In this document: piece by piece, positions 26,288 through 61,895 of the stretch
Position numbering within the stretch: the stretch's first letter is position 1
How the letters are laid out: every line of letters starts with the position of its first letter
Assembly (NCBI GenBank): GCA_013203315.1
Contig: JABMQJ010000001.1
Span: 1-64,000, forward strand
Origin: Candidatus Omnitrophota bacterium
GTDB lineage: Bacteria > Omnitrophota > Gorgyraeia > JABMRN01 > RBG-13-46-9
Reading direction: 5' to 3'
DNA length: 64,000 nt
Notes under the pieces: model-generated
Told to the model about the DNA's origin: nothing
Databases searched by the model: none
The model's input: only the letters and a program-made list of their open reading frames with translations
Position numbers and translations under genes: made by a program

Positions 26288-26296
26288 GTTGCCTCT

Positions 26297-27466: not shown

Positions 27467-27468
27467 GA

Positions 27469-27714: not shown

Positions 27715-27722
27715 CCCTTTAA

Positions 27723-28642: not shown

Positions 28643-28654
28643 AAATCACCCCGC

Positions 28655-29245: not shown

Positions 29246-29257
29246 ATTTCACCCCTT

Positions 29258-30381: not shown

Positions 30382-30382
30382 T

Positions 30383-31499: not shown

Positions 31500-31509
31500 G
31501 CCTTCCTCC

Positions 31510-31731: not shown

Positions 31732-31751
31732 TTTGACCTCCGATTTTTTTA

Positions 31752-44224: not shown

Positions 44225-44352
44225 TATTTTTGCGGGTTTTACCCTACGGAATCAGCTGGTATTGGCCTGCGGCTTGGCACTTTCGCCGGAGCTCTTTCCG
44301 TTAGCCCTCCCCCTTCTATTGGTGCAACCTAGGCATAAAGCCCGCTAAAATA
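44225..44352. repeat. MITE-like element, copy 1 (degenerate)
   Basis: Ends TATTTTTGCGGG / CCCGCTAAAATA; shares CCCTACGGAAT, GGTATTGGC, TGCGGCTTGGCA, CGGAGC with 51628-51743. Confidence 0.7.
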
Positions 44353-44411: not shown

Positions 44412-45599
44412 ATGGCACGACACATATACATGGATAATAACGCAACGACCCCTCTCCACCCTGAGGTGAAGAAGGCTATCAAGGGTGCGCTCGATATGTT
44501 CGGCAATCCTTCGAGTCTGCATGAGTTCGGACGAGAAGCGAGGGCAGCTGTCGAGAGAGCCAGGGAACGCGTTGCTTCGTTTATTGGGGCAAGTCCTGAT
44601 GAGATTATATTTACGGGAAGCGGCTCTGAGGCTAATAATACGGTGCTTTCGCTTGCGGCGTGCCCTGCTACATCCTGCTTAAATCTTCTCGACAAGAAGA
44701 AAACCGGTATTATCACCACTACCATTGAGCACCCCTGCGTGTTAGAGACTTCAAAATGTCTCACGGATAGAGGTGTCGATGTCACGTATCTTAAAGCCGA
44801 TTGCCTGGGCAAGGTAAGCGTTGAAGAATTAGAGAACGTCCTCACCGAGAAGACCGGCATCGTTTCTATAATGATGGCAAATAACGAAATCGGTACGACA
44901 CAGGATATTAAGTTGCTTGCGAAGATGGCGCATAAACACGGTGCCCTGTTCCACACGGATGCGGTTCAGGCAGTGGGTAAGATCCCTGTAGATGTAAAAG
45001 ATTTAGATATTGATTTTCTGACGCTTTCGGCGCACAAGATATATGGGCCCAAGGGAATCGGCGCGCTTTATATTAAAAAAGATATTCCGTTTTGTCCATT
45101 GATTCGCGGCGGTCACCAGGAAAGAGGCCGGCGTGCAGGGACAGAAAATACTTTAGGCATAGTAGGCCTCGAAAAAGCAGTCGAAATGCGCGCAAAAGAG
45201 ATGAATGCCGAAGAAACACGCCTACTTCAGTTTAAAAATAAACTTAAAAAAGGTATCGAAGACAATATTAAGGATGCGCGTTTCAACGGACATCCGCACG
45301 ATTGCCTTACCGGCACGACGAATGTTTCGTTTGATGGCGCAGAGGGTGAGGCGATTCTCCTATATCTTGACCAGAAGGGCGTCGCTGTCTCTACGGGTTC
45401 AGCCTGCGCGTCCGGTTCACTCGACCCTTCGCATGTGCTTCTTGCAACAGGCACACCGGCTGAAAGAGCGCATGGCTCGATACGCATAAGCATGGGCCGG
45501 GAAAATACTGAAAAAGAAGTAGACTACGTTCTAACAACGCTGATTGACGTGATAAAGAAAGTGCGTAGCATGTCAACAGCCTACGGAGATAAAAAATAA
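44412..45599 (+). CDS. nifS: Cysteine desulfurase
   Basis: YMDNNATT, GNPSSLH, HTDAVQ, SAHKIYGPKG, STGSACASG. Confidence 0.95.
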   Translation: MARHIYMDNNATTPLHPEVKKAIKGALDMFGNPSSLHEFGREARAAVERARERVASFIGASPDEIIFTGSGSEANNTVLSLAACPATSCLNLLDKKKTGIITTTIEHPCVLETSKCLTDRGVDVTYLKADCLGKVSVEELENVLTEKTGIVSIMMANNEIGTTQDIKLLAKMAHKHGALFHTDAVQAVGKIPVDVKDLDIDFLTLSAHKIYGPKGIGALYIKKDIPFCPLIRGGHQERGRRAGTENTLGIVGLEKAVEMRAKEMNAEETRLLQFKNKLKKGIEDNIKDARFNGHPHDCLTGTTNVSFDGAEGEAILLYLDQKGVAVSTGSACASGSLDPSHVLLATGTPAERAHGSIRISMGRENTEKEVDYVLTTLIDVIKKVRSMSTAYGDKK

Positions 45600-46213
45600 T
45601 GGCTAAAGAAGAATTTAGCTGGGTATATACAGGAATCGCCAAAGACCACTTCACTAATCCCAGGAATATTCTGGGAGATGAGGCCTCATTCAAGGATAAC
45701 GGAAAAGGTACCGTTGGCAACATGAAGTGCGGCGACCAGATGCTGGTAGCGATTAAGGTAGATAAGAGTAAAGGTACGATTACAGACTGTAAATGGAAAA
45801 CCTACGGTTGCGCAAGCGCTATCGCGAGCACTTCCATCATGTCGGAGATGGTAATAGGTATGACAATCGAGAAGGCTTATCACCTCTCCCCGAAAGACGT
45901 TGCCGCAGCACTTGGCGGTCTACCCGAACACAAAATACACTGCTCTGTACTAGGAGATAAAGCGTTACGCGCGGCAATAGACGACTACTACAAGCGTAAC
46001 GGAATGGAAGATAAGATCGTTAAAGAAAAAGCGCGCCTTGTATGTCAATGTATGAACGTAACCGACCACGAAATCGAGCACGCTGTCTTAGAAGGCGCAC
46101 GAACGCTCTACGAACTCCAGGAAAGAACCAAACTCGGCACCGTCTGCGGTCAGTGCAAACCCGAAGCAACTCGCCTCCTGCAACTCTACATCAAAAAACA
46201 TTTCAGTAAGTAA
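45599..46213 (+). CDS. nifU: Fe-S scaffold: IscU domain + BFD-like [2Fe-2S] domain
   Basis: HF.NPRN, CGD, GCASAIAS, KIHCS; CQC...GTVCGQC; no Nfu domain. Confidence 0.92.
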   Translation: MAKEEFSWVYTGIAKDHFTNPRNILGDEASFKDNGKGTVGNMKCGDQMLVAIKVDKSKGTITDCKWKTYGCASAIASTSIMSEMVIGMTIEKAYHLSPKDVAAALGGLPEHKIHCSVLGDKALRAAIDDYYKRNGMEDKIVKEKARLVCQCMNVTDHEIEHAVLEGARTLYELQERTKLGTVCGQCKPEATRLLQLYIKKHFSK

Positions 46214-46367
46214 AATATTATTCTATTTTTGATTTTTATTATAAAGAAGCTTATAACGCGGTAGGGTTTTGGATAGGCACTCTTAAGTGTGCCCTGCTTA
46301 CTTGAAAAATACAAAATAAGATGGCTCTACTTGAATTATTTAAACAAATAGAGCCATCCCGAATGCT

Positions 46368-46685
46368 TTATTTCTTATTTCCTAAAAGAAATTCCGGATT
46401 CTTAATTATTGGGCCATATTCAGGGAACGGAAAAGTAACTGTTTCAAACACTCCGCAAAGAACTCTTCCGCCAAATTTGAAAATCCCACCTAATGGTCCC
46501 CACGTTATGGCACCAAGAATTCCATCCTTCTCATACCCATCTTGGATTCCATTAAGTATTTCAAGCGGGCTTGTAACGATGTTTGTCACACCTCTGTAAA
46601 GTTTTTTGGCGGCTAGATCAGCATAAGCTGCGGTAGCGCTAAATAACATTACACCGATAAGAAGCAGGATAATTAGCTTTTTCAT
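46368..46685 (-). CDS. Exosortase-system-associated (TIGR04073-like) protein
   Basis: Signal peptide, KLYRGVTNI, R...GVFETVTFPFP...PEF. Confidence 0.75.
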   Translation of the reverse strand: MKKLIILLLIGVMLFSATAAYADLAAKKLYRGVTNIVTSPLEILNGIQDGYEKDGILGAITWGPLGGIFKFGGRVLCGVFETVTFPFPEYGPIIKNPEFLLGNKK

Positions 46686-46772
46686 TTTTTTACCTCCTTA
46701 TTTTAAATATAGTATACCCAATGAAAATCAATACTGCAAATATACTTCAGTTATCCACAGGGTAGGGCACTC

Positions 46773-46976
46773 TTAAGTGTGCCCTGCTTGCTTTCTGTCG
46801 CAAATTAACTGGCCGCCGACTCCAACGTTTTCCGGTGCATTTTCCTTGATTACCGCTACAATAACCGCGGGAGGTAACTTATATGCCTTTACTGCTGCTT
46901 CAGTCACTTCTTTGATTAAAGCTCGTTTCACCTCTAAATCTTTTATCTTTGGTCCTTCCACTGTAATATTAGGCAT
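46773..46976 (-). CDS. 4-oxalocrotonate tautomerase family protein
   Basis: N-terminal Pro, IKENAPENVGVGG. Confidence 0.9.
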   Translation of the reverse strand: MPNITVEGPKIKDLEVKRALIKEVTEAAVKAYKLPPAVIVAVIKENAPENVGVGGQLICDRKQAGHT

Positions 46977-47128
46977 TCTTCCCCCTTTTTTGGATTTTTA
47001 CTCTTGTGCCATTTCAGAATCTGAACTCCTGTCTGCCGGCAGGTAGACAGGCTATTTTTGAAAATGGTTCACTGTCCTCAATTTTAACGGTGTTTAAGTG
47101 GGTATACAGGGTGAGGATATGCTATGGC

Positions 47129-47554
47129 TCAGTCTACCTGATGCGCAGTCAAGAACATAGACTTCTCGAGAACAGTGAAAAAATCCTGATAAGACTCCGG
47201 ATTATCGACAGCCCTAAGCCCAAATTGAGCATTTGCCCTAACCAATAGTTGCGTTTCTCCTCTGGGCCTTACCGTAACAGTCATCTTTAATAAAGTATGC
47301 CTTGTAAATTTTGATGCTGTTACAGAGCCCAAGCTTAAATCTGCTCTATCAATAACAAATTCTAAATCTTGAAGAGTGCTTATTACTGTCCTAAGCATTT
47401 TTTTTCTATCGGTAGTATCAAAAGCCCTTGTTTGTATGCTACGCAATTGAACTTGGCTCTGTTCGGCATCAATTGTTCGCTGGGCAGTTGTTGTACAACC
47501 CGCTAAAGATAAAACGAAAAATAAAAGAAGAAGACCTCTTAACATTATTTTCAT
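47129..47554 (-). CDS. Lipoprotein (paralogue of 47551-48123)
   Basis: LAGC lipobox; QLRSIQTRAFDT, LG.V.ASK, PE.YQ.FF. Confidence 0.82.
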   Translation of the reverse strand: MKIMLRGLLLLFFVLSLAGCTTTAQRTIDAEQSQVQLRSIQTRAFDTTDRKKMLRTVISTLQDLEFVIDRADLSLGSVTASKFTRHTLLKMTVTVRPRGETQLLVRANAQFGLRAVDNPESYQDFFTVLEKSMFLTAHQVD

Positions 47555-48123
47555 ATTTCCTGCCCTTCAAGGAATATTGCTTTTGATACTTTGTCGAAGA
47601 AACCTTGGTATAATTCTGGTCCTTTCAAAGTCTCCAGTCTAGAAACGTTTCCCAGTCTGTTCCAGACAATTCTCTGAAAGGTAGTGCGGACGATTAATTT
47701 ATTTCCTTCGGCGTTTAGCTTACTAACAACGGATACTCTAATTTTCTGCTCTTTATCAATATAGTCAAAAGCGTTTGTATTTGTGCCTGAGAGTGCGGCG
47801 AGGGCAACTGCTGCGGTTGCTGCCGCAACCTGAACTGCATCTGTTGCATCTCTACTTTTTGAAGCTACAACAAGCCCTAATTCTGTTTCGCTATCGTCAA
47901 GCGTAAAGCCCATATCTTGAAGAGCACCGGCGCAGGCTGAGAGTACTTCTGCTTCGTTTATCGTTTCAAATTGCCGCATTTGTAACTGGCGTACTTGCAG
48001 ACTGTCCTCTGATAGGGTAAATAATTTTTTAGGGGTGGTAGCAATACAACCTGTTATAGAAATGCACAAAACAAGGAGTGACGGTAAGATAAAGTCTTTT
48101 TTTAATTTTGTAACTTTAAGCAT
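47551..48123 (-). CDS. Lipoprotein
   Basis: ITGC lipobox; RQLQMRQFET, LGLVVASK, PELYQGFF. Confidence 0.82.
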   Translation of the reverse strand: MLKVTKLKKDFILPSLLVLCISITGCIATTPKKLFTLSEDSLQVRQLQMRQFETINEAEVLSACAGALQDMGFTLDDSETELGLVVASKSRDATDAVQVAAATAAVALAALSGTNTNAFDYIDKEQKIRVSVVSKLNAEGNKLIVRTTFQRIVWNRLGNVSRLETLKGPELYQGFFDKVSKAIFLEGQEI

Positions 48124-48125
48124 AT

Positions 48126-48524
48126 TTAAAATTTAGAAGCGTGATATGCAAAATCTCTTACTTTGCCCTCATTGTCAAACTTGATAACAATGGTCAAGGT
48201 TCTCTGCGTAGTCGATTTTGCTCCGGCGGTCCCAGGTGTTAGAAATTTTAGACCGGCATTGCTATCCGAATATACTATATCAGTAGCTATTTTATCGTAG
48301 ACCCATACTTCCCGTCGCTGCTCATCAGTGGTTACAACATTGGGAGAACCTAATGTCTCTACAACCTTCGATGAGGGCATTCCGATCAAAATTTCACGCT
48401 GGACTTTGCCCACAGTTATCCTATCCCCGGTATCATCCTGCACTTCTCTTCTATGATAACTAGCTGACGCACATCCCATTAAGAATATTAAAGAAACAAC
48501 TACTATAATAAGTTTTTTATCCAT
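48126..48524 (-). CDS. SmpA/BamE-like lipoprotein
   Basis: LMGC lipobox; IGM...VVETLGSP...EVWVY...L.I.FD..G.V. Confidence 0.8.
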   Translation of the reverse strand: MDKKLIIVVVSLIFLMGCASASYHRREVQDDTGDRITVGKVQREILIGMPSSKVVETLGSPNVVTTDEQRREVWVYDKIATDIVYSDSNAGLKFLTPGTAGAKSTTQRTLTIVIKFDNEGKVRDFAYHASKF

Positions 48525-48681
48525 GATTCCCCCCTATTTTCATTAGTATTGTTTTATATTTTAGTCTTGCCGGTATTGAATGTCAAGCCTATTTAGCGAT
48601 TCTCTATCTGAACTACCCTTCGACCGTTTCAGAATCTAAATTCCTACCTAACGGTAGGCAGGCCGGCAGGTTATTTTTGAA

Positions 48682-49104
48682 TTAGAAGTCCTCGCTTTTT
48701 AAACCATGCCTTGAACGTAGTTTTTTCTTTTCCGCCCTCTTCTTTTTATTCCTAAGCATCTTTTCTTTTGCTCTGCGGGATCGCCGGCGTTTTTGCCTTC
48801 TTATCTTTTCTATCCTTTTTCTTTCTTCCGAATGCCTTCCCAGTATGTGCGCTTCGATTTTGCCCGTGAGGCGCCTGCGCGCTATAAATCTATTTAAAGC
48901 CTGCGAGCGCTCTTCCTGGCATTTTACCTCTATGCCGGTCGGCCCATGCCTAAGATGCACGCAGGTAGATACCTTATTAACATTTTGACCGCCCTTTCCG
49001 CCTGAACGGACAAACCACTCCTCCATGTCCTGTTCGCGGATACCAAGCTTCCGCATCTTCGCCTTCAGGGCTTCTTCTTTACTGCTGCTCACACCGAATT
49101 GCAT
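48682..49104 (-). CDS. arfB: Alternative ribosome rescue peptidyl-tRNA hydrolase (ArfB-like)
   Basis: [22 protein letters not shown], basic C-terminal tail. Confidence 0.88.
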
Positions 49105-49177
49105 AATTGAAATCCACTTTTCGACCGTTTAAGAATCTGAACTCCTGCCTGCCGGCTTTAAAGTAACAAATCGATCA

Positions 49178-49543
49178 CTAGGCGGAATAGACTAAGAGAG
49201 CTCCGAAAGCTAAGGCCAAAAGACTGATCAGGCGCATGGATAAAATAGGTTTTCCCTGCCACCAGTCAAGATAGGTATATATCGATTTTGGTTTTATCAC
49301 AAGTAAAAGCACACCCTTTATGATCGACCAGATACCAAGTACCTTAATCAGTAATACTATCCTGCACTGCGGGGCAGCAATTAAAAAGACGATACCGAAA
49401 AGAAGTGCCAAAATACCGCCGACCTTTAGCCTTTTTTCATTTCTCCAGAACGCAATATATCCTTTTAAAGTATTTTTCCTTACTAAAAAAAGGATTCCAA
49501 TAACCATAATAATTACACCAAAAAGCCTGACAACCATAACCAT
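49178..49543 (-). CDS. Small 4-TM membrane protein
   Basis: Hydrophobic internal repeat, GGGAGG RBS. Confidence 0.78.
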   Translation of the reverse strand: MVMVVRLFGVIIMVIGILFLVRKNTLKGYIAFWRNEKRLKVGGILALLFGIVFLIAAPQCRIVLLIKVLGIWSIIKGVLLLVIKPKSIYTYLDWWQGKPILSMRLISLLALAFGALLVYSA

Positions 49544-49620
49544 AAGTACCTCCCTTTTTTACTCTTCGACCATTTCAGAATCTGAACTACTGTCTGCTAG
49601 CAGGTAGGCTCTACTTTGTC

Positions 49621-50115
49621 TTAAAACCCAAGAAACATTAGCCACCTGGCACGCCTTCCCAGTAAATCAGCTCGTTCAACCCTGTTAATATCTCGCAGTA
49701 ATTTATCACGCGTTTCCGTTATGCCACGTTCAGTAATTTTTAGCTTCTCATATTCTATTCCGCCGGCTTTAATAAACTCAACGGCTTTCTGCAATTCTCC
49801 TTCATCGAAAAACGTCCCATGTTTTTTACACTTATCGACAACAATTCCCGAGTGATGCATGTAGTTTTTGCGCCACATCAATCTACTACAACGGGGGCAT
49901 TTGCAATACTTTACTTTTTCCGTACGCCCCAAAGGTTTATATACCTTGTGTAAATCACGTAGCTCACTCACGGTAAAGACTTCCGGAATTATCTTCAATA
50001 CCTGTTTTTCTTCGAACTTATCTACCCATACACCTTTACATTTTGGACAAATGTCGGTTTCGATACCGTTTTCCTTGAACACCTTCATTTCAATATCACA
50101 TTTGGGACATTTCAT
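49621..50115 (-). CDS. Double zf-TFIIB zinc-ribbon protein
   Basis: CPKC...DICPKCKGVW.D; CPRC...VDKC..HG.FFDEGEL. Confidence 0.88.
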   Translation of the reverse strand: MKCPKCDIEMKVFKENGIETDICPKCKGVWVDKFEEKQVLKIIPEVFTVSELRDLHKVYKPLGRTEKVKYCKCPRCSRLMWRKNYMHHSGIVVDKCKKHGTFFDEGELQKAVEFIKAGGIEYEKLKITERGITETRDKLLRDINRVERADLLGRRARWLMFLGF

Positions 50116-50188
50116 TTTCCTCTCCTATATAAACTTCTCCCTGCCTATTTAAAATCGCGGACGTTATAAAGCTACCGCCGGGACAGGC

Positions 50189-50854
50189 CTAAGATCGTGC
50201 TTTGCCCCGCCCCATACCTTCCCGGAGGCCAACCACCAGAAATAACATTCCGACTATCTGGATAAGATGAAAAATACCGTTGTTATCAAATTTCCAAATA
50301 AGCCGGGCAGCAATATCCTTGTTAGCTTGAAAAATTGCGGCGATGATTGTGAAGAGAACCCCGATCGCTATTAATCCGGCGCCGCCGAGTCGCTTTCGCA
50401 AGGCCAACCAGCTGTAAGCGATCAAAACAAAGGTCATGGTAATTGCCTCGTAAATAATAAAAACCAGAAAAGTTCTCGGAAAAAGCAGGTTCACCGCGTA
50501 AAAGGCTACCCCAATCGCAAGCATGACCGGAAGCATCCGACGGACAGCAGCGCGGCCCAGCATGTCGTAGATGGCCCCAAGGATAAATAAAACAACCACG
50601 AAACCCAATGCCAAAAAGAGTGGTTGCCACAGAATATTCTCTAATGCCTCGGACATTTTAAGGCCATGCAGTAATGCCCCCGATGCGGACGAAAAGGTGA
50701 CCAGCCCAAAGAACCATGACCAGATATTTGTTCTCTGCATATCACGCTGCTTGGTTCGGCGCAGGTAAAAGAGGCAAGCCGCGGCAACTAAGGCTAAAAC
50801 CGCATCTGTCACGGCTGTCGTTTGCTCTATTGGTATATTAGTGATTTCCAGCAT
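50189..50854 (-). CDS. 7-TM membrane protein (DUF6962-like)
   Basis: EQTTAVTD, GALLHG, FIIYE, FDNNGIFHLIQ. Confidence 0.75.
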   Translation of the reverse strand: MLEITNIPIEQTTAVTDAVLALVAAACLFYLRRTKQRDMQRTNIWSWFFGLVTFSSASGALLHGLKMSEALENILWQPLFLALGFVVVLFILGAIYDMLGRAAVRRMLPVMLAIGVAFYAVNLLFPRTFLVFIIYEAITMTFVLIAYSWLALRKRLGGAGLIAIGVLFTIIAAIFQANKDIAARLIWKFDNNGIFHLIQIVGMLFLVVGLREGMGRGKARS

Positions 50855-50890
50855 TAAATTCGTAACCTTAGACCGTTTTCGATAAAATGA

Positions 50891-51529
50891 TTATCTATCT
50901 ATCAGTTTACTGACCGTCTCCATGCAATGATTCACAATCTCTTTAATAATATTTAACATATCAAGATATCGGACCTTTGCCCATTCATCACAAATTCCCT
51001 TTGCTGACCTATCTATATGGTTAAGGCGACTTTTTTCTATTAATGCGTAGAGGGATGATTTATTTTTTAAAATATTTTTGCCTAACTTCCTATCATTAGT
51101 CTTCACCGCCACAATTGTAACTGACAAAATCTCTTCTATATTGTTACATAGCTCCTTATATTCTTGCAATGCTTTGTCACTAAATAACAATTTTTCACTA
51201 ACTTTATACTCAATTCGTTCTACTAAATCTACACATAGATCTCCCATCCTCTTAATTGCGCCGATAATGCTTACCAAATCAATGACTATTTTTTTAGCTT
51301 TGCCTGATGATTTCTTTTTGGAAATTTCGATTGCTAAGGTAGTTAAATTAGTATAAGCTTCATTAATTTTTGTTTCATTCTTAAGCACCTGATCTAAGAG
51401 CTTGATATCGTTCTTCATCAAACCATTAAAGTTAGTACGAAACATTATTTGAACCCGTTCTAACATTTCTATGGTCTCTTGTCTTAATGAAGCTATTTTT
51501 CTTAATTCAGCTTTATTTAATTTGGCCAT
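50891..51529 (-). CDS. Stand-alone PhoU-like domain protein (resembles Na/Pi-cotransporter C-terminus)
   Basis: KRMGD, LFSDKA..E, R..HIDR...G.C; helical repeats. Confidence 0.75.
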   Translation of the reverse strand: MAKLNKAELRKIASLRQETIEMLERVQIMFRTNFNGLMKNDIKLLDQVLKNETKINEAYTNLTTLAIEISKKKSSGKAKKIVIDLVSIIGAIKRMGDLCVDLVERIEYKVSEKLLFSDKALQEYKELCNNIEEILSVTIVAVKTNDRKLGKNILKNKSSLYALIEKSRLNHIDRSAKGICDEWAKVRYLDMLNIIKEIVNHCMETVSKLIDR

Positions 51530-51627
51530 AGTTTTACTCCCTCTTTTACCGTCTCAGAATCTAAAACCTGCCTACTACTAATATTGTAGGCTTGGCGTTG
51601 TTCAAAGTCAAGGGGCAAAAAAGTGAC

Positions 51628-51743
51628 ATTTTTGCGGGTACTGCCCTACGGAATGAGAGGGTATTGGCGTGCGGCTTGGCATTTAACGACGGAGCCCTGC
51701 CAATACCCTCTCATTCCGTTGATTGGCAGGGACTCGCAAAAAT
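51628..51743. repeat. MITE-like element, copy 2 (intact hairpin)
   Basis: Ends ATTTTTGCGGGT / ACTCGCAAAAAT; perfect 21-bp internal stem 51648-51668 / 51699-51719. Confidence 0.8.
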
Positions 51744-51819
51744 ATGCTTTTATATTGAGGGGTTTTTTGTTATAATTTTAGTCATTCAAACCGATAAACT
51801 ATCAAGAAGGAGGAAATCA

Positions 51820-52476
51820 ATGAAGATATTAATTTTAATAGTAGCGATGTGCATGATGGCAGCGAATGTGTTTGCCGAGGGGGATATGGCAACGCAGGCA
51901 AGTCCTTCGGTGACGATAAAACTTCCGACGCCCGAGACGAGCGGAGGCAAACCGTTGATGCAGGCGCTGAAAGATAGAAAATCGAGTAGAAACTTTAGTG
52001 ACAAGGAGTTACCACAGCAGGTATTATCCGACCTTTTGTGGGCAGCGTTCGGCATAAACAGGCCGGATTCAGGAATGCGCACGGCACCCACAGCGCATAA
52101 TATGCAGGAAATCTATATTTTTGTGGCAATGTCCAAAGGCCTTTATCTTTATGAACCAAAGCAGCATATATTGAAGCTGATGCTAGCCGAAGATATACGC
52201 GCTGTAACCGGTATGCAGGAGTTTGTGGCAACAGCACCGGTGAACCTTATCTATGTGGCGGAATATTCCAAGATGGCCAATATAGGCAGTGAGAAAGACT
52301 TTTACTCAGCTACAGACACCGGATTTATTTCTCAGAATGTATATTTATATTGCGCATCGAAGGGCCTGGCAACAGTCGTACGCGGCTGGGTAGACAGGAA
52401 AGCTCTGGGAAAAGCAATGAACCTACGCCCCGACCAGAAGATAATCCTTGCCCAGACGGTCGGGTACGAAAAATAA
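51820..52476 (+). CDS. Exported nitroreductase (SagB/ThcOx-like)
   Basis: AGGAGG RBS, ATG 51820, signal peptide; LMQAL..RKS.R, LLWAAFG, RTAP, SQNVYL. Confidence 0.88.
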   Translation: MKILILIVAMCMMAANVFAEGDMATQASPSVTIKLPTPETSGGKPLMQALKDRKSSRNFSDKELPQQVLSDLLWAAFGINRPDSGMRTAPTAHNMQEIYIFVAMSKGLYLYEPKQHILKLMLAEDIRAVTGMQEFVATAPVNLIYVAEYSKMANIGSEKDFYSATDTGFISQNVYLYCASKGLATVVRGWVDRKALGKAMNLRPDQKIILAQTVGYEK

Positions 52477-52523
52477 CGAAGAGTTATTCACAGGGCAGGG
52501 CGCTCTTGGGGGTGCCCTGCTTG

Positions 52524-53024
52524 CTATAGCACGCCTTTACCCTCTAGATATTCCTCGTAATAATCAGTTACTTTTCTGTTTTTCGTTGCGCTAAACGACT
52601 TATCCGCATGCATGGCCGGTTTATTGGCATGTTTTTTGGTTTTTTGCAAGAATGTTGGGTATTCAACCCGCGCACCGTGCACGCGAGAGCCATTTCGTAC
52701 CCGGTTATCATGCGATATGACAGTTATGCTAGATGGCTCCTTCGAATTCTTCACCATGCTTATTATGCGATCATCCGCTGCTTCTTTGGCGCGCGTAAAA
52801 ACGCAGTCAATGCCGCCTATCTTTGTGCGGGAATAATCCATAAAGTCGACATCCCTCCCGTCAAATACTATAATAATTTCCGCATTAACACGGCTACGCT
52901 TCCATCCCGCCACATGCATTGCCAGGGCGCTCCTGGCTTCGGCAAGGCTTTCCTTAAGCTTCGCCGTGAGCTCCGAAATCCGGTAAATAACGTTATATCC
53001 GTCTAGTATAAATATCTTTTTCAT
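52524..53024 (-). CDS. NYN domain (YacP/Rae1-like) RNase
   Basis: ILDGYNV, IVFDG, ADDRI, VISHD. Confidence 0.88.
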   Translation of the reverse strand: MKKIFILDGYNVIYRISELTAKLKESLAEARSALAMHVAGWKRSRVNAEIIIVFDGRDVDFMDYSRTKIGGIDCVFTRAKEAADDRIISMVKNSKEPSSITVISHDNRVRNGSRVHGARVEYPTFLQKTKKHANKPAMHADKSFSATKNRKVTDYYEEYLEGKGVL

Positions 53025-53101
53025 ATCCGTGAGTTATCTTTCGACCGTTTCAGAATTTGGGCTCAACGCAGAACAGTGTATTTAAATTATACCCCTAAAA
53101 T

Positions 53102-53131
53102 AGAAACGCCTCAAGGAAAACCTTGAGGCGT
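53102..53131 (-). terminator. Intrinsic terminator
   Basis: ACGCCTCAAGG-N4-CCTTGAGGCGT stem just downstream of the 53157 gene. Confidence 0.75.
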
Positions 53132-53156
53132 CACGGTACACTGTTTCGTTCAAATT

Positions 53157-53984
53157 TTATTCTATATCCTCGTCTTTCCCGTTAATGAATTGCAACATGG
53201 ATGCTCTGTTTTTTTGAATACGGTTTGCAATAAGTTTCAGGGACCCTTCGTCTAACTCCGGTTTTTCTGTCTCGGTTTCGGATTGCGCGGGTGTTTCTGT
53301 AATCTTGGTGGTTACTGCAATTGTGCAACCCGTGTTACGAGACGCCTCGAGATCGCTTGAAAAAAAGTTAACCATATACGGCTTAGGGTCGTGGTACACA
53401 ATCGTCTGAACAAGCCAAGCGTCTTCATACCACATTTCACCCTTATCAAGAGGTTCTCCCGGCTGTGGCAGATGTGGCTGATTATATACAATTAACTGGA
53501 CAAGCCGGCCATCCTTATAGTTATACTCGGGATAACCGTCTATTTCGCTGGGATCTATCGGAAGGTACTCCCTTATATCCATATTGGGAAACTTCAGGTC
53601 CACCGGGTATTTTTCGTATTCTTTTTTTGGTATCAACGGTTCTCTGGGCAACTCTATTATCCTGGCAATCGGGTTTTCTAAGCCTGGCTTCGGAGCCAAA
53701 CCGCGTACGGGATCGGACCCTATGTCTTTATTAGGGTATTTAATTATCTCGAAACCCTTTTCGGGCAGCTCGATATTATCCCCTATTTCTTTTTTCACGA
53801 TCAACTCTTTTTTCGTTTCTAGCACTTCCTTAAACTGTTTCACGGATCTGCTCGGAATTTCTTTGAGTTCTTTATCTTTATATGCATTCGCTTTGCCTTT
53901 TTCGGCAAGGCAAGGACTCTGAGAAACCACAATACCCAAACAGATTACGAGCACGATAACCTTAATTGTCATTCTGCCATTCAT
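53157..53984 (-). CDS. Hypothetical secreted protein
   Basis: Signal peptide, Pro/Glu-rich; no family recognised. Confidence 0.75.
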   Translation of the reverse strand: MNGRMTIKVIVLVICLGIVVSQSPCLAEKGKANAYKDKELKEIPSRSVKQFKEVLETKKELIVKKEIGDNIELPEKGFEIIKYPNKDIGSDPVRGLAPKPGLENPIARIIELPREPLIPKKEYEKYPVDLKFPNMDIREYLPIDPSEIDGYPEYNYKDGRLVQLIVYNQPHLPQPGEPLDKGEMWYEDAWLVQTIVYHDPKPYMVNFFSSDLEASRNTGCTIAVTTKITETPAQSETETEKPELDEGSLKLIANRIQKNRASMLQFINGKDEDIE

Positions 53985-54114
53985 TTCATTTACCCCCTTC
54001 TTGCTTACGGTTTTTAAAACTCTTTACTTTCGTGTCAAAAAAATAACTCGAATCTCATACTCTATAACAAAATCACAGCTTGTTTACTCCTGTTATTTTC
54101 TGACTATTTTATTC

Positions 54115-55548
54115 TTAATTTTGCTTACTTCTTATCATTTGAGCTTCAGGGCTTCTCGGGTATTTTCGTAATACAAGCGCATAATAGTGCTCTGCTTCCT
54201 TTGTATTATTCAGTCTTTCTTCATATATAATTCCCGTAGCATACAGTGCCATGCTTGCAAACGTAGACTCGGGATATTTACGAGAGACCTTTTGGAAAGT
54301 CTCTATCGCTTTCTCGGACATGCCAAGATAGTTGTAATAGGCACCTATAAAAAGGAAGATCTGTGGCTTATGGCCCAAACTCGGATGCATGGCCATTATC
54401 GCTTCCAGCGTCCTAATTCCCTGCAAGTGTTTACTTCTGTCCTTTGTCTTTATCGCATTGTCTATTAACTCAATCGCCTTCCTAAGGTCAAGAGCGGCTT
54501 CTTTCGGCTCGAGGTCAGATATATATAATGGGGCGGGCCTTAAGAGCTCTCTTGTCCTGTATTTTCCATTACTGATTAAAAGCGCAACCTGGACTTTCTC
54601 TCCGATTTCATAGAACTCCGTCATTTCCTGCCATTCTTTTTCCAATAGCTGGCGCGGGGCCATGGGTGCCTCCCCCTTAAATACTTCTGTTGCCTCCCCG
54701 CCACCTAGTATTACCTGCTGCTGTTTAAGCGCTCCTTCTGGTATGAATGTTGACACAACCTTTACCCTGCCGTTTAATACACCAAGCCGCGTCATCATTG
54801 AGGGCTGTGCGGAAACATCTACTAAAAAATCAGTTCCCAGCGCCGTGGCTGTGGCTTCGGGAGTTGCCATGACAAAACGTGACCCCTTGAATTTTTTGCT
54901 TAAACGCACCAGCGTTTTACCTTTTTTGAGGTTGTATACTGTCTTGCCGGGCACATATTTTGGCAATAACTTCGCTATTTTTATTTCAGAATTCTGCTTA
55001 ATCCTGACCCTGTATTTATTTGTATGCGCTATGTCAACAAAAGATCCACTGTCAACGGTTAGCGTATCGTTCTTGCCGAGTAGTAGCCCTTTGGTTCCTT
55101 TGGCCCACTTACGCCCCCTATGACTGTAAATCATTACTTTGCCCTTTACCGTCACAATCTGTACGGGCTGGACCACTAAATATGTAAGAACCCCGTATGC
55201 CGACACAAACAAAAGGAGCGTTACGACAACCCTTGCAAGCATGGGCGCAGGCAGGACAAAGACTTCCCGGGTTCTTTGAAGAACGCGAGTTACAATGAAA
55301 CCTATCCTGTTTTCTTCCCTGCTTTTTAAAGTGTTACGCAGTTTTTGATTGAAGGCCCGGTCGAAAGAGGTAGACAGCTTTTCTCTATCCGCATGCCTAA
55401 TGACCAGATTCGAATTCTTTAATAAAAGGGCTGTTTTCCTGCAGGATTCGCACTCGCTAAGATGGCTCTCTACCCTTTCCCTTTCAGGGAGAGAGCACCT
55501 CTGATCTATATATCTCGATAATAATTCGAAAGGCATTTTGTGCTTCAT
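54115..55548 (-). CDS. Anti-sigma factor: zf-HC2 + TM + FecR + TPR
   Basis: HLSECESC ZAS motif, TM helix, TPEATATALGTDF (FecR), C-terminal TPR. Confidence 0.88.
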   Translation of the reverse strand: MKHKMPFELLSRYIDQRCSLPERERVESHLSECESCRKTALLLKNSNLVIRHADREKLSTSFDRAFNQKLRNTLKSREENRIGFIVTRVLQRTREVFVLPAPMLARVVVTLLLFVSAYGVLTYLVVQPVQIVTVKGKVMIYSHRGRKWAKGTKGLLLGKNDTLTVDSGSFVDIAHTNKYRVRIKQNSEIKIAKLLPKYVPGKTVYNLKKGKTLVRLSKKFKGSRFVMATPEATATALGTDFLVDVSAQPSMMTRLGVLNGRVKVVSTFIPEGALKQQQVILGGGEATEVFKGEAPMAPRQLLEKEWQEMTEFYEIGEKVQVALLISNGKYRTRELLRPAPLYISDLEPKEAALDLRKAIELIDNAIKTKDRSKHLQGIRTLEAIMAMHPSLGHKPQIFLFIGAYYNYLGMSEKAIETFQKVSRKYPESTFASMALYATGIIYEERLNNTKEAEHYYALVLRKYPRSPEAQMIRSKQN

Positions 55549-56132
55549 TTTACGCCACTTTTTTGCGGAATTTTAATTTTCTTTATAAACTGTTTCCGTG
55601 CCCTTGCAAGCCGCGAAGAAATTGTCTTCATATTTGTTTTCAGCACTTTGGCTGCCTCTTCGTAAGAAAGGCCTTCTATTACGCAGAGCGCAATGACATC
55701 CCTGTAAAGCGGATGAAGGCTTTTCAGGGCATTTTCTATCGCTTCCTTGAGTTCCTTATTTTTCACGAAGGAATCTGCCGAAAACCCGTCTTTCGTCAAT
55801 ACGCCTTCGAGGTTGATATCCATGTCCCCTTTTCCCGCTCGACCGGACAAAGATACCTGCCGCATCGAACTCCTTTTCTTTAATTCGTTTTTTGCCAGAT
55901 TCGAAGCTATTGTATAAATCCAGGCCTTAAAAAGCCCCCTGGGCTCGTATCTATTGATGTTAAGGTATATGTTTATAAAAACTTCCTGCGTAAGCTCTTC
56001 GGCAACCGCCCTATCGCCTATCTTTCTGTTGATGAAATTAAATATTCTTTCCTTGTACGCATTATACAATTCATCAAAGCAGGCCCGGTCGCCTTCCCTG
56101 AATTTCCTTACCAGGGCATCGTCTTTATTCAT
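55545..56132 (-). CDS. ECF sigma factor
   Basis: AEELTQEVF, FKAWIYTIASN, LSYEE.A, T..SRL.RAR; likely start ATG 56132. Confidence 0.93.
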   Translation of the reverse strand: MNKDDALVRKFREGDRACFDELYNAYKERIFNFINRKIGDRAVAEELTQEVFINIYLNINRYEPRGLFKAWIYTIASNLAKNELKKRSSMRQVSLSGRAGKGDMDINLEGVLTKDGFSADSFVKNKELKEAIENALKSLHPLYRDVIALCVIEGLSYEEAAKVLKTNMKTISSRLARARKQFIKKIKIPQKSGVK

Positions 56133-56220
56133 TACCCTCTCTATATATATTAAACAATATTTTGTGCCGAAAACTCCACGTTCTATAGACATTCTGTATC
56201 AGCTTGCTTTTTTTGTCAAT

Positions 56221-56261
56221 AAAAAAAACGGGACTGGTTTTTACCAAATCCCGTTTTTTTT
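56221..56261. terminator. Bidirectional intrinsic terminator
   Basis: AAAAAAAACGGGA...TCCCGTTTTTTTT. Confidence 0.85.
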
Positions 56262-56290
56262 GTTATCTGCGATTTAACGCTGATTGTTAC

Positions 56291-57844
56291 TTATTCATCT
56301 TCCTCTTCGCTTCCTGTCTCATCTTCGGCATCGTATGAGCTGAAGGCCTCCAGGAGAATTATGGCGCCTTTACCGCCTGAATAAACAGCACCCGGCGTTT
56401 CCCGGAGAATACCTTTAAATGCTTCCTGCAACTTATTTTTGTGCTGCATCCATTCGTTTTCCAACAACGAAATCTTGTTAACCCGGCCTGTGTTGAAGTT
56501 TTTTGCGAAATCCATTTTTGCGGCAGGTACTTTTCCGCGTGTCCCAAACTTTTCGGCTTTTTCAAAAAGATTATTTGGCTTTGATGCGGATCCCCCCTCC
56601 TGTATCGGGCTTTGGTTTTTGCCGGTCTTATAGGCGTAAATCGGTTGCGCTTCATATGCTGCTTTTTGATCTTCGATAACCTGTGGCTTATACAATTTAA
56701 TATCTACGCTTTCGGTTCGCTCATCGTTTAATTTTCCGGCAATCTTTTGCTTGGTAACATTGAGGCCAACGAAAATTTCCTTTATTTCTGTTATTCTTCC
56801 GGGCTCTACGCCGGGTGGCCGCGTATATGTTACTGCTATTGTCCAATCATCATTGGTAATGGTAAGGGTGTATCCTCCGCCGTAAGCTGATTCTGACAAG
56901 CTCAAAACAGTATCTCCAAACTGTTGCGGCATGGGTTGTCCCCAATAGTTTCTGGCAAACCACACCAGTATGACTCCTAAAAGCTCGCGCATTTCACCGT
57001 CCATGCGGGATACGCCAAAACCGCTACTTTCCGGGCCTTCATACCGCGAATACCAGCCCCCGTGAGGCAGCCTATAAAAGTTTCTGTATTCTTCTATATC
57101 ATCCAAATCATTGAACTCGCCATCCCCGTTTGTATCAAGGAGATTCTTTGCGAGTTCGTCCAAAAAGTCTCGTAAATCCTCGTCGATTTGACGCTGAAAA
57201 AGTTCGGCGAAGGATTCTTCAACGGGATCCCTTGCATCAACGGGATCCCTTGCATCAATAATAATAAGCTTGCTGTTTTCGTCGTCCCACTTAATCGTAA
57301 AACCATCACCGATCGGTATCTTCATAGAGACACCTTCGTCTTTCTCTTTATCCCCGTCCGGATCTCCGTTATTACCTTTAAGCGCTTCGAGCGCGCTTTC
57401 AAGATCTCTTAATCTAATATCTAATTTTTCACGAATATCTTTTTCCGAATCGTCATCCTGATATATACTGATTATATCTTCCAGAATATCCGAGAGCCCC
57501 TTGCTTGGCAGTCCCTTGTTTAGCAGATTTTCGATCTCTTTATTCAGCAAGCCTTTGTATGTTTCAAGGATTTTTGGCAAAGGCGGATCATTCTTCGGCT
57601 TTATCGTTATGGACAAGTTATCTCTGGATTTCTCAGAGAGACTATTTTTCAATTCCAGGTACTGACTCACCAGGGCTTCCCGTTGGGGGTTATATACAGC
57701 GACAATCTTGCCGGAAACCTTTGCCTTGGGCTTCTCCGAAATGCTTTTTGCGTGCGCAAAATCACAGGGAAGCGTCGAAGAGACAAAAGCCACCACCACT
57801 GACATCGCTAAAATCCTATTAAATATTCTTTTCCTGTTTAACAC
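56291..57844 (-). CDS. Hypothetical secreted protein with EF-hand-like loop
   Basis: Signal peptide ending AHA; DTNGDGEFND; acidic tail. Confidence 0.78.
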   Translation of the reverse strand: MLNRKRIFNRILAMSVVVAFVSSTLPCDFAHAKSISEKPKAKVSGKIVAVYNPQREALVSQYLELKNSLSEKSRDNLSITIKPKNDPPLPKILETYKGLLNKEIENLLNKGLPSKGLSDILEDIISIYQDDDSEKDIREKLDIRLRDLESALEALKGNNGDPDGDKEKDEGVSMKIPIGDGFTIKWDDENSKLIIIDARDPVDARDPVEESFAELFQRQIDEDLRDFLDELAKNLLDTNGDGEFNDLDDIEEYRNFYRLPHGGWYSRYEGPESSGFGVSRMDGEMRELLGVILVWFARNYWGQPMPQQFGDTVLSLSESAYGGGYTLTITNDDWTIAVTYTRPPGVEPGRITEIKEIFVGLNVTKQKIAGKLNDERTESVDIKLYKPQVIEDQKAAYEAQPIYAYKTGKNQSPIQEGGSASKPNNLFEKAEKFGTRGKVPAAKMDFAKNFNTGRVNKISLLENEWMQHKNKLQEAFKGILRETPGAVYSGGKGAIILLEAFSSYDAEDETGSEEEDE

Positions 57845-58097
57845 TTTTTTAACTCCGTTCTAAAGTGGGTAAAAAAAATACCCCTCACACACGGTGTGCC
57901 TTGTATATACAAGTGTACCATAAATTAAAGGGTCTTGTGGGGGGAAATATCTTACTTTTTTATAGCCTAACAAGGTTAAGTGGCATTAGGAATTATTCTA
58001 GGGACGGTTCTCGCTAAGTCTTTTATTTACAGTTGGTTGCGGATTGCTTCATCTACTCTTGTACCGTTTCGGGCGCTCTTGGGGGTGTCCTGCTTGT

Positions 58098-58331
58098 TCA
58101 CTTCCCCTTTGACCCTCTAATTGCCCAGAGGATAAGACGGATAAGTAAATAGACGGGGTATCCGAGAAGCATAAACATGAACGCGAATGTGACTATTTGC
58201 TGACCGGCTTGTTCACCAACTATTGCAAACTCGGTCATACGCAGGGCAAATATGACAATTGCGGATATGACCACGATGCCGAGCAATATGAGCCCTTCCT
58301 TCTTTATGATTTTTTTTATACCATCTTTCAT
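58098..58331 (-). CDS. Small 2-TM membrane protein
   Basis: AGGAGA RBS, two hydrophobic helices. Confidence 0.7.
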   Translation of the reverse strand: MKDGIKKIIKKEGLILLGIVVISAIVIFALRMTEFAIVGEQAGQQIVTFAFMFMLLGYPVYLLIRLILWAIRGSKGK

Positions 58332-58433
58332 CCAGACATCTCCTTGCCTGCCGGCAGGCAGACTTTAATTAGGCCCCAGGGACAGTTCTTAATCTGTCCC
58401 TTGCCTGAACCGTTCCTATTTTCAATTTTTGAC

Positions 58434-58661
58434 TTACAGCTCGAACTTGCTTTTATCTACTCTCGCGGTTTTAGAAAATTTTTCTTTAACACCATCCAGA
58501 GTATCCTGGAGAGCCTTAAATATTTTCTCCACCTCTTCCGGCGTGGATTCGTAACCGGCACCCGATAAATTACCCAACAGTTCTATCTTCTTTATCGCAT
58601 TCGTTACCCTCTGCGTCGCGAGTCTTTTAAACTTATCATGTTTGCTTTCAGATTCTGCCAT
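58434..58661 (-). CDS. Small helical hypothetical protein
   Basis: AGGAGG RBS; KFKRLA..R...I.LLGNLS...YE...EEV.KIF.A pattern. Confidence 0.8.
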   Translation of the reverse strand: MAESESKHDKFKRLATQRVTNAIKKIELLGNLSGAGYESTPEEVEKIFKALQDTLDGVKEKFSKTARVDKSKFEL

Positions 58662-58754
58662 ATTTTCCTCCTTTTTTTAAAATCGTTATTGTTTAGCTTT
58701 CGACCGTTTCAGAATCCGGAAATTCTTATCAGCTCGTGCATATCTTCCTCCTAT

Positions 58755-59267
58755 CTAATTTTCGGTTACATGCTCGATTACGCTGCTTTTTGCGATGTCA
58801 CCCGGGGATGTAGTGTCTGCTGTCGGGACTTCTGGGACTATGTCGAGCCCGCCGGAGTTGAAAGCCTCGTAGCAGAGCTCCGAACAGAAATAATCTTTAT
58901 CCTTTTGCCACGTATTGGCGATATCTTCAAAGGGGAGTTTAAGCTTTGAGAGAAGTTTTAAAAAACCCAGAAAAAATACGCCAAGGTAGTCATATTTATT
59001 GTTTAACGCGTCTACTAAATACGATATTGTGTTGTTTATATCAAAGCTATGCCCTTCTTTTATTCTATAAACATCATAGCCCTGTTTTATTTTCCTTATA
59101 TCACGGGCCCTTACGCCGCCTTTTGTTATCGCTTCTATCACAAGATTCATTTCCGGGGATACACAAACAGCGACGTGTGAATATTTACTACCAGTTCCCC
59201 ACTGTATGATCTTAGATATCCCGTCTTCTCCTTCAAATAAAAGTATATCGCCGGTTTTCATCTGCAT
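58755..59267 (-). CDS. Permuted papain-like NlpC/P60 enzyme (YiiX/YebB-like)
   Basis: GDILLF, YSHVA, YDY, YFCSEL, SPGD. Confidence 0.88.
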   Translation of the reverse strand: MQMKTGDILLFEGEDGISKIIQWGTGSKYSHVAVCVSPEMNLVIEAITKGGVRARDIRKIKQGYDVYRIKEGHSFDINNTISYLVDALNNKYDYLGVFFLGFLKLLSKLKLPFEDIANTWQKDKDYFCSELCYEAFNSGGLDIVPEVPTADTTSPGDIAKSSVIEHVTEN

Positions 59268-59952: not shown

Positions 59953-61170
59953 TTATTTTAGTTCGTATAAAAATACCTTATCGTTACGACGGGCCTTGAA
60001 GGGTAGCTTTATACCCACCCGGTCGCCTTTTTTCGCGGAATCCACGGGGATTTCGTCTTTGTGCATTTCATCTATTTTCGCAACTCTGGCGGGGGTGGTT
60101 TTTCCGCAAATTAATACGTTCTGGCCTTTCTTGATGCCATTATCTATTACAGATACTCCCGCAACATTCACTTTGTTGTAGAAATTAATAACCTTTCCCA
60201 CAAAAAGCTTATTGTAGGCGCTCTGCCCCTTTTTGCTGCCGGTATCATTGGGTTGCGAGAAGAAGAAGCCGTCTGTAAAACCCCTGTTATACGTAAGCGA
60301 GAGCCTAATTTTAAGCGCTTTTTTACTTTTCGGGTCAAGCTTGCCGGCGAAAAAAGAATCTATCGCTTCCCTGTAAACGGCAGTAACCTCCCCCACGTAT
60401 TCGGCCGAACGCATACGGCCTTCTATCTTAAAAGCGCTTATACCGGACTCTATTAGTTTATCAATAAACTCAATAGTGCACAAATCCTTTGTGCTCAACA
60501 CGTAATCGGTACCTAAAACGTAATCGTTTTCTTTATCTCTGGTATCTTTGATTAAAAATGCGCGCCTGCACGGCTGGAGGCACATGCCGCGGTTTGCTGA
60601 TTTTGAAAATGAAGCGTGCGAAAGAAAACATCTGCCGGATATGCTGACGCATAAGGCCCCGTGGATAAAAGTTTCTATTTCACAATCCAATTTTTCTTTC
60701 TTTACATTTTTAATTATTTCTTTTATATCCGAAAGATTGCACTCCCTGGCAAGAACGATTCTTTTTACGCCTTGGGAATGGTAAAATTTGAGCGCGGTGA
60801 AATTGGCGACACTTGCCTGTGTTGAGAGGTGGGTTTTTAGTTTCAGGTCTTTTGCGTATTGTAGTGCCGCCATGTCCCAGAGCATGACAGCGTCAACATT
60901 GGCTTTCTTGGCATTTTCTAAAATTTTCTTTATCTTTTTCATGTCGCTATTATACATGATGGTATTAAGCGCAAGATAACCCTTCTTCCCGTTATCGTGA
61001 AGACGCGACATTACCTTTTTTATTTCGAGCATATCAAAATTAGCGGCCCAGTGCCGCATGTTTAAATTCTTTATGCCGAAATATACGCTATCTGCGCCGG
61101 CTTCTATCGCCGTATTTAAAGCGCACCAATCCCCTGCCGGGGATATTAGTTCCGGTTTTTTGTGCTTCAT
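59953..61170 (-). CDS. U32 family protein (RNA hydroxylation, TrhP/RlhA-like)
   Basis: ELISPAG, GADSVY, HLSTQ, FIHGALC.SISGRC, NRG.C.QPCR, KIEGRM. Confidence 0.92.
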   Translation of the reverse strand: MKHKKPELISPAGDWCALNTAIEAGADSVYFGIKNLNMRHWAANFDMLEIKKVMSRLHDNGKKGYLALNTIMYNSDMKKIKKILENAKKANVDAVMLWDMAALQYAKDLKLKTHLSTQASVANFTALKFYHSQGVKRIVLARECNLSDIKEIIKNVKKEKLDCEIETFIHGALCVSISGRCFLSHASFSKSANRGMCLQPCRRAFLIKDTRDKENDYVLGTDYVLSTKDLCTIEFIDKLIESGISAFKIEGRMRSAEYVGEVTAVYREAIDSFFAGKLDPKSKKALKIRLSLTYNRGFTDGFFFSQPNDTGSKKGQSAYNKLFVGKVINFYNKVNVAGVSVIDNGIKKGQNVLICGKTTPARVAKIDEMHKDEIPVDSAKKGDRVGIKLPFKARRNDKVFLYELK

Positions 61171-61895
61171 TACATGGCTCGGGCGAGGTTATTTAGCTTT
61201 TCGCGTATGAGCTCTCTTAGGCGTGCATAGTCTTCGATTTTGTAAGGCGTTGTATCGATCGGCGGCAGAACGGTGAGTTTGCCGGATACTTTTGTTTTAA
61301 AAACCCAGCTACCCTTGGGGATCGCTTCCCTTGTGCCGCCCATAAAAACAGGAAGAATGGGTTTGCCTTCCCTTATGGCTAGCTTGAAGGCCCCATTCTG
61401 GAATTCGTTCATGTCGTCTGTATCACTGCGTGTGCCTTCCGGGAAAAAGAGTACCGACTTACCTTCCCTTAACTTCTGGGCCGCGGCCCTATACACTTTT
61501 TTAATGCTCGCAAAGTCTCCCCTGTTTAGCAAAATATGGTTATTGACCCTGAGAAGGCCTCCGATAAACGGAACCTTAAGGAGGTTTTTTTTGGCCACCC
61601 ATTTGAATTGCGTGCGTATTTTGTATATTAGGACAATATCGGCAAGACTCTGGTGATTGGCAACTATGACATATGTTTTTTTGTGGTCAATATTCTCTAA
61701 TCCGCTTACCTCCAGATTCCAATAAGGATTTAAGGATACCAAGGCATCCGACCACCAGAAGCACTGCGCGTGGACTATTTTTTCTCGCTTGTCAGGCGGA
61801 AAAGGCATCTTCGACAGGACCCGGCTCACAAAAATCACAGTCGCGGTAAGGATAGTGCCCACGACCCATATCACGATTGATATTATAAATCTCAT
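61170..61895 (-). CDS. plsC: 1-acyl-sn-glycerol-3-phosphate acyltransferase
   Basis: NHQSLAD, FFPEGTRS. Confidence 0.93.
   Translation of the reverse strand: MRFIISIVIWVVGTILTATVIFVSRVLSKMPFPPDKREKIVHAQCFWWSDALVSLNPYWNLEVSGLENIDHKKTYVIVANHQSLADIVLIYKIRTQFKWVAKKNLLKVPFIGGLLRVNNHILLNRGDFASIKKVYRAAAQKLREGKSVLFFPEGTRSDTDDMNEFQNGAFKLAIREGKPILPVFMGGTREAIPKGSWVFKTKVSGKLTVLPPIDTTPYKIEDYARLRELIREKLNNLARAM

Follow-up and report, generated by a model that had tools for sequence, protein, structure and literature searches.

The subject of this work is an intergenic repeat in a 64-kb window of the genome of an uncultivated Candidatus Omnitrophota bacterium (genome G000; 32 contigs with 1,505,222 bases in total, of which C1:1-64000 is the window). 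Nine copies of the repeat split a run of co-directional, functionally unrelated genes on the minus strand (positions 46368..59267, according to the list of open reading frames (ORFs) and Pfam). An earlier reading, made from the sequence only, had proposed that the repeat is a recombination site of an undescribed gene-capture system. We found instead that it is homologous to the outer arm of repetitive extragenic palindromic (REP) elements, which flank a transposase gene. The junction repeat is probably the outer arm of a non-autonomous element of the REP/REPIN (REP doublet forming a hairpin) type, belonging to a family-specific RAYT (REP-associated tyrosine transposase) system, with the nine copies being solo ends of a diverged sub-family. 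This assignment is based on the inverted copies at the RAYT-type gene, on doublets that fold into hairpins, and on the match to published REPIN features. The gene run is compact and co-directional, and the copies occupy its short spacers, where REP-type elements are usually found; this gives them the appearance of cassette junctions.

Nine Copies of the Repeat Split a Co-Directional Gene Run

The window contains seven clear and two degenerate copies of the motif, which is about 27 nt long. All nine are located between ORFs and have the same orientation; here the sequence-only reading, which had listed the same positions, was correct, also in that no other clear copy was present in the 64 kb. 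A search for the 19-nt core with up to three mismatches gave six matches in the window and none in 100 dinucleotide-preserving shuffles. When up to four mismatches were allowed, the whole 1.5-Mb genome had 10 matches, seven of them within C1:47004-58699 and all of these on the same strand. The remaining three, on C2, C3, and C6, were poor, with four mismatches each. Contig C6 begins with one further, truncated copy of the motif. Read on the minus strand, the gene strand, the conserved block is ATTCTGAAACGGTCGAArrnTA, and about 25-30 nt are kept.

The E values given here for single copies are those of R1, a model of the arm that uses sequence only and was built on one sub-type. The copy at 46999..47025 (E 5.7e-7), a GGCACA variant, precedes the tautomerase start by 22 nt and is itself preceded on the minus strand by a GC-rich hairpin (47028-47051). 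The copies at 48614..48640 (E 1.4e-8), 49115..49141 (E 7.5e-9), and 49560..49586 (E 6e-8) are located 89 nt upstream of a 132-aa ORF, 10 nt upstream of the ArfB start, and 16 nt upstream of a 121-aa ORF, respectively. They adjoin a hairpin at 48643-48662, half a hairpin at 49144-49155, and a hairpin at 49590-49609, so that GC-rich hairpins are found next to four of the nine copies. The degenerate copy at 50863..50889 takes up the 36-nt spacer that separates the PhoU-like gene from the DUF6962 gene, 8 nt from the next start codon, and was matched neither by R1 nor by nhmmer. It carries GAAAACGGTCTAAGG, a variant of the terminal box that was found also in another genus. The copy at 51539..51565 (E 6.3e-5), a GGTAAA variant, is separated by 9 nt from the PhoU-like gene downstream of it and lies inside a predicted 5' untranslated region (UTR), and the copy at 53035..53061 (E 1.6e-7) is located 10 nt upstream of the NYN/YacP gene. 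The second degenerate copy (58054..58098), 209 nt upstream of the 517-aa ORF, consists of a GGGCAC..GCGCCC-type hairpin and of GAAACGGTACAAGAGTA, which is the consensus terminal box of the family. The last copy (58694..58720; E 4.8e-6) precedes the 75-aa ORF by 32 nt. All copies are on the minus strand. A start codon follows within 8-32 nt in seven of the nine cases; the sequence-only reading had counted the same number with a spacing of 9-33 nt.

In ascending order, the run comprises a 105-aa ORF, the tautomerase gene, three unnamed ORFs, the ArfB gene, the 121-aa ORF, a Zn-ribbon protein of 164 aa, DUF6962, the PhoU-like and NYN genes, a 275-aa ORF, an anti-sigma factor, an extracytoplasmic function (ECF) sigma factor, ORFs of 517, 77, and 75 aa, and a C92 peptidase. 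A nitroreductase gene on the plus strand (51592-52476) interrupts it. Pfam confirmed the earlier names for the tautomerase, ArfB (RF-1 domain), PhoU, NYN/YacP, and the ECF sigma factor with its FecR/zf-HC2 anti-sigma factor, while the presumed lipoprotein trio was reduced to one sub-threshold match to BamE.

Full-Length Elements and Inverted Doublets

In other genera of the family the conserved block constitutes the 3' portion of a longer element (about 70 nt). We built an nhmmer profile from 23 full copies of this element. In G000 the profile gave 12 strong matches (E up to 1e-7) on both strands of C2, C3, C9, C10, C18, C19, and C24. They comprise the two flanks of the RAYT-type gene, one singlet on C2, and four inverted doublets (C3/C9, C10, C19, C24). 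Full-length members thus occur in both orientations on at least six other contigs, which speaks against the reading of the motif as a recombination site. The window copies aligned to profile positions 47-79 only (nhmmer, E 0.003 to 0.8). Because they match only the last ~30 positions of the element, we regard them as solo ends.

When folded as single-stranded DNA, the doublets of C10, C19, and C24 formed near-perfect hairpins of about 135 nt with -50 to -56 kcal/mol. The z-scores were -14 to -16, and none of 200 shuffles was as good. The outermost ends of the folded doublets read TGTACCGTTT...AAACGGTACA.

A RAYT-Type Transposase Gene Is Flanked by Inverted Copies

The sequence-only reading had named a REP family as an alternative and a co-occurring HUH transposase as a point to check. 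Both were borne out. G000 has one Y1/HUH gene of the RAYT type (C18:80273-80767; 164 aa), which matched PF01797 Y1_Tnp with 68.3 bits, above the cut-off, at C18:80318-80653. Its translation shows the motifs HVH and YIEENP. The best NCBIfam model was NF047646 REP_Tyr_transpos (75.5 bits, versus 29.6 for IS200), and the protein had no sequence match in the PDB. On either side of the gene is an inverted copy of about 70 nt (C18:80150-80222, minus strand, and 80742-80819, plus strand). Inverted full-length copies were present on both sides of the RAYT-type ORF also in G004 and G009, which belong to two other genera, and the flanking copies of all three genomes end with ..AAATCGCAAACGGTACA/..CGTTACA. 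In G004 a second copy, which has exactly the sub-type of the window (TTCTGAAACGGTCGAAAGAG), follows in tandem behind the RAYT flank.

In G003 and G004 the element begins inside or directly after the last codons of a Y1/HUH ORF ending ...YKWSSY..LDE(V/I)RVQ(V/L)*. In G003 and G011 the motif is fused to remnants of the RAYT gene that are truncated or have internal deletions. RAYT homologs were detected in 12 of the 14 genomes of the family. At the separate IS200-type gene of G000 (C25) no copy of the motif was found.

According to the description in PMC3337134, a REPIN consists of two inverted REPs that form a hairpin, and the associated short transposase gene with HUH and Y motifs is flanked by the repeats; singlets are regarded there as decaying remnants with a non-random distribution. 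RAYTs are usually single-copy, as described in PMC5581495. The closest systems among those treated in these reports are the REPINs of Pseudomonas fluorescens SBW25 and the REP/bacterial interspersed mosaic elements of Escherichia coli with TnpA-REP (PMC3337134, PMC5581495, PMC3733652). The system of G000 resembles them, as far as they are described there, in its HUH and Tyr gene of about 500 bp, the single RAYT-type copy, the inverted flanking repeats, the dispersed inverted doublets with long single-stranded hairpins, the extragenic location of the copies, and the existence of singlets. It differs in that some window copies are fused to a separate GC-rich hairpin module and in its host, an uncultivated family.

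Distribution of the Repeat in the Family and the Class

At E values up to 0.1, R1 matched 11 of the 14 family genomes, and the number of copies per genome ranged from 0 to 9. When 151 genomes sampled evenly from the class were searched (E up to 0.001), it matched four of the six genomes of the own family and one of the 145 others. As judged from these searches, the repeat/RAYT system is family-specific and low-copy. Among 11 RAYT loci only the G004 copy was scored by R1, because this model was built on one sub-type; the other RAYT flanks were read directly and with a second profile. A motif scan of metagenomes gave six loci, which were four chance matches in coding DNA and two short contigs. 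A search of the literature found no paper on a REPIN or RAYT system in Omnitrophota.

The element in other genomes has no fixed relation to gene starts. Three of 15 copies in other lineages had the start of a same-strand ORF within 40 nt, and for five of the 15 a convergent ORF ended within 50 nt, its 3' end facing the copy.

In G011, which belongs to another genus, the 121-aa gene and the ArfB gene are also neighbors (C89:4544-5895), with a 150-aa ORF between them that by eye resembles a GNAT-like acetyltransferase. The 5' part of a REP without the terminal arm is located there directly upstream of the 121-aa gene, at the junction that corresponds to the 49560 copy.

Observations against the REPIN Assignment and Possible Origin of the Solo Ends

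Several observations weigh against the assignment to REPINs. The REP_Tyr_transpos score of the transposase was just under the curated NCBIfam cut-off of 80. G000 has about 20 copies, far below the tens to hundreds of classical REP families. A single unit is not itself a palindrome: no consensus fold was obtained for 19 aligned single units, and the solo copies are not palindromic units. Three window copies folded together with their adjoining hairpins had z-scores of -2.5, 0.1, and -1.4, and only one of the three was better than shuffles, and this modestly. The window sub-family has mostly GGTCGA where the doublets and the RAYT flanks read GGTACA or GTTACA. Since the solo copies differ in this way from the flanking arms of the resident RAYT, they may be its substrates only putatively. 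Seven of the eight clear sub-family copies of the 1.5-Mb genome are found within 11.7 kb, and the one-sided window copies, confined to a 12-kb locus, all represent the same half in the same orientation, which random decay of doublets would not give. Finally, two breaks in synteny lie at the repeat. At the 53035 copy the homology between G000 and contig C45 of a related genome, G001, stops within 5 nt of the 3' end of the motif, with a different gene next in each genome, and another break between the two is located within ~15 nt of the 3' end of a motif copy. Breaks at this position are not predicted for a passive remnant.

The uniform orientation may be the result of strand-specific insertion into single-stranded DNA on one replichore. 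Strand-specific single-strand insertion is known for the Y1/HUH transposase superfamily. The GC skew was negative along the whole window, which places the window on one replichore. Single-strand insertion could explain the polarity of the copies but not their clustering. The solo ends would be decaying or locally copied remnants, and they might sometimes act as break or recombination points, through nicking or through homology between copies.

If the assignment is correct, a REPIN/RAYT-type system is added to an uncultivated lineage. The locus would also show that repeats in a compact genome can mimic a gene-cassette array, which is a warning for automated searches for integron-like structures. 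Nine solo ends of the same side and strand in 12 kb of a rearranging locus would be a small but concrete lead on whether domesticated HUH transposases shape gene order.

Gene Order in a Related Strain

The breaks at the repeat raise the question of active gene shuffling. Under this explanation the solo ends would be live cleavage or recombination sites of a trans-encoded Y1/HUH transposase, by which single promoterless genes are excised and re-joined. The locus would then function as a cassette array in which an HUH enzyme takes the place of the integron integrase, with cleavage a few nt beyond each end, and its signature would be the uniform polarity of the nine ends together with breakpoints at their 3' side. 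The ends of IS200/IS605 elements, namely the left and right subterminal hairpins on which the Y1 TnpA acts, are recognized as single-stranded DNA, and breaks are expected a few nt beyond the end. These elements share the enzyme superfamily with the transposase studied here, which differs in being flanked by inverted and not by direct copies.

We compared the locus with G001:C45, a contig of a closer strain of the same genus, which is 83-95% identical in DNA over the shared parts (about 90%). It contains the same genes in another order, with their orientation kept. On the minus strand, the order in G000 is C92 peptidase, motif, 75 aa, 77 aa, 517 aa, ECF sigma, anti-sigma, 275 aa, motif, NYN, (nitroreductase), motif, PhoU-like. 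The order in C45 is a miniature inverted-repeat transposable element (MITE), motif, PhoU-like, NYN, hairpin and motif, 75 aa, 94 aa, 582 aa, ECF sigma, anti-sigma, 348 aa, motif, 491 aa. The re-ordering of the PhoU-like gene, the NYN gene, and the ECF block with retained orientation would be in line with shuffling, as are the break at the 53035 copy and the fact that all nine copies point one way. Two loci elsewhere fit as well. Beside a tRNA gene of G012 (C1, ~434,450-434,760) a tandem duplication of about 110 nt has a REP between its copies, and the second copy starts 4 nt beyond the arm. In G011 there is an extra gene at a junction where G000 has a copy of the repeat.

The borders of the moved genes argue against shuffling at the repeat. 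Of the breakpoints examined against this one close contig, two were at or near the 3' end of the motif, but at least four were at ORF borders without a motif. The NYN gene moved as a bare ORF: it is bounded by its stop codon and by a point ~10 nt before its start, and in C45 it abuts a truncated, 15-codon fragment of the 77-aa gene, with no motif at this border. For the PhoU-like and 75-aa genes, the break follows immediately after the stop codon, and no motif travels along. Some coincidence is expected, as short spacers are the only places where breakpoints and repeats occur. Rearrangement is moreover general in this lineage, since 11 matching ORFs from one 20-kb stretch of a genome ~70% identical map to seven G000 contigs, and gene order relative to this genome is scrambled genome-wide. 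The missing link of the element to gene starts in other lineages does not fit either, and the comparison covers one close relative. The gene-capture interpretation is not supported by these tests, with one strain comparison, and we consider active shuffling by a transposase unlikely.

A REP was also located 37 nt from the border of another indel, between G001:C46 and G000:C28 (83-91% identical). In the literature on REPs and rearrangement breakpoints we found nothing usable.

G001 looks like a mixed bin. Its contigs C1, C45, and C46 are 83-95% identical to G000, while C17, C26, and C48 carry the same genes at 65-76%, and positions 26001-31741 of the window match it twice, with 87-89% identity on its C1 and 65-76% on its C26. 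Recent horizontal transfer of the locus, which the high identity to G001:C45 could suggest, was rejected, as G001 holds two sets of contigs, at ~90% and ~70%.

The proteins of the ECF module (53157-57844, versus 5652-10746 of the corresponding locus in the close strain) showed very different identities between the two strains. The anti-sigma factor was 94% and the sigma factor 88% identical, the 517-aa protein 35%, and the 275-aa protein 70%, with different lengths. The unnamed partners of the module evolve much faster than the sigma/anti-sigma pair.

The block of 46.2-61.9 kb of the window is inverted or inserted in G000. The NifS-NifU pair (44412-46213) and the gene at 61170-61895 are 15 kb apart and on different strands in G000. 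In G001 (C17) the homolog of this gene follows directly after NifS-NifU on the same strand, and in G005 it is found within 3.8 kb.

Position of the Repeat Relative to Promoters and Start Codons

The short distance to a start codon in most window copies would also fit a regulatory motif of a local regulon (promoter, operator, or 5'-UTR signal), which could for example be controlled by the ECF sigma factor and the FecR-type anti-sigma factor encoded inside the locus. Two of the copies are located in predicted 5' UTRs, and from our own reading of the alignment the purine-rich 3' end could add to ribosome binding. The position relative to promoters had no fixed geometry, however. A sigma-70-like site at 48586-48558 (TTGACA-17-TAAAAT, 11/12) lies on the gene strand downstream of the 48614 copy. 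The 51539 copy is itself downstream of a sigma-70-like site (51611-51583), and a hairpin resembling a terminator (53132-53105) and a promoter-like site (53114-53086) precede the 53035 copy. Several start codons are too near for a -35/-10 pair. Orthologs of the downstream genes in other genera lacked a copy; this was the case for ArfB (five loci), the 75-aa gene, NYN, and the 77-aa gene. This variable position and the missing copies at orthologs also argue against the transcription-factor operator that the sequence-only reading had offered as an alternative.

A structured RNA did not fit better. In the palindrome TTCAGA-N-TCTGAA of the sequence-only reading, the left half is not conserved in two of seven copies. 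An RNA hairpin of the form TTCAGA-T-TCTGAA was rejected on this ground and because compensating changes were absent. When this locus and three related ones were compared with Rfam (E up to 1), the only match was a chance one to a snoRNA. Promoters of the ECF, sigma-54, or phage type were rejected, as the spacing to the start codons is too short and a second conserved box is missing. Together with the homology of the motif to repeats that flank a transposase gene, these results make a regulatory function quite improbable.

An integron-type array, namely a cluster of attC sites lacking an integrase (CALIN), or an array of dif modules, in which very divergent sites are used by a tyrosine recombinase, can practically be dismissed. 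Like integron cassette arrays and CALINs, the locus has short co-directional unrelated genes, many without their own promoter, with a similar repeat between them, and the genome has three tyrosine recombinase genes. A CALIN needs no integrase. The sequence-only reading was right in that attC boxes are lacking: RYYYAAC...GTTRRRY pairs were found 0 times in 46260-58760 on either strand and four times in the whole window. Its statement on recombinases held in that contig C1 had no match to PF00589 (tyrosine recombinases) or PF01797 (Y1 transposases), with serine recombinases not included in this search. The three PF00589 genes are on C2, C17, and C25; two of them have the size of Xer proteins, and a tRNA gene is located next to one. 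In contrast to cassettes, the gene moves without the repeat in the strain comparison, and the repeat belongs to the family of repeats of a Y1/HUH transposase. In dif/pdif modules the Xer-type sites have alternating orientation around each module, while all window copies are direct.

Other Repeats in the Genome

A dispersed MITE of ~165-190 bp with terminal inverted repeats of ~30 nt (ACGGAATGAGAGGGTATTG...) was present in more than 20 copies in G000. It is found at most contig ends of this genome, for example at the C1 end and on C10, C11, C13, C14, C16, C22, C23, and C30-C32, which indicates that it broke the assembly. It also bounds both ends of G001:C45. Internal copies are located, for example, at C6:39145-39302 and C2:36675-36839, and the window has a partial copy at 44226-44298. 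An internally deleted copy, of which only the terminal inverted repeats are left, lies at a rearranged junction (51628..51743, no strand assigned); it does not belong to the REP family.

GC-rich hairpins of the type CCTGCC(n)GGCAGG recur genome-wide directly 5' of a GGGAGG/GGAGG ribosome binding site and start codon (C12:21637, C14:1668, C17:47530, C19:2773, C25:57594, window 58344-58361, and G001:C46 ~8520). This hairpin is the module that adjoins four motif copies in the window, and in G011 it occurs inside a REP. It may represent either a 5' stem-loop or a small, independent palindromic element. Hairpins of a second family, GGGCAC..loop..GTGCCC flanked by conserved sequence, are located right after stop codons, in the window at 46259-46302, 46749-46792, 52482-52525, and 58055-58098 and also at C28:25865. 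One hairpin of this family is fused to the REP terminal box at 58054.

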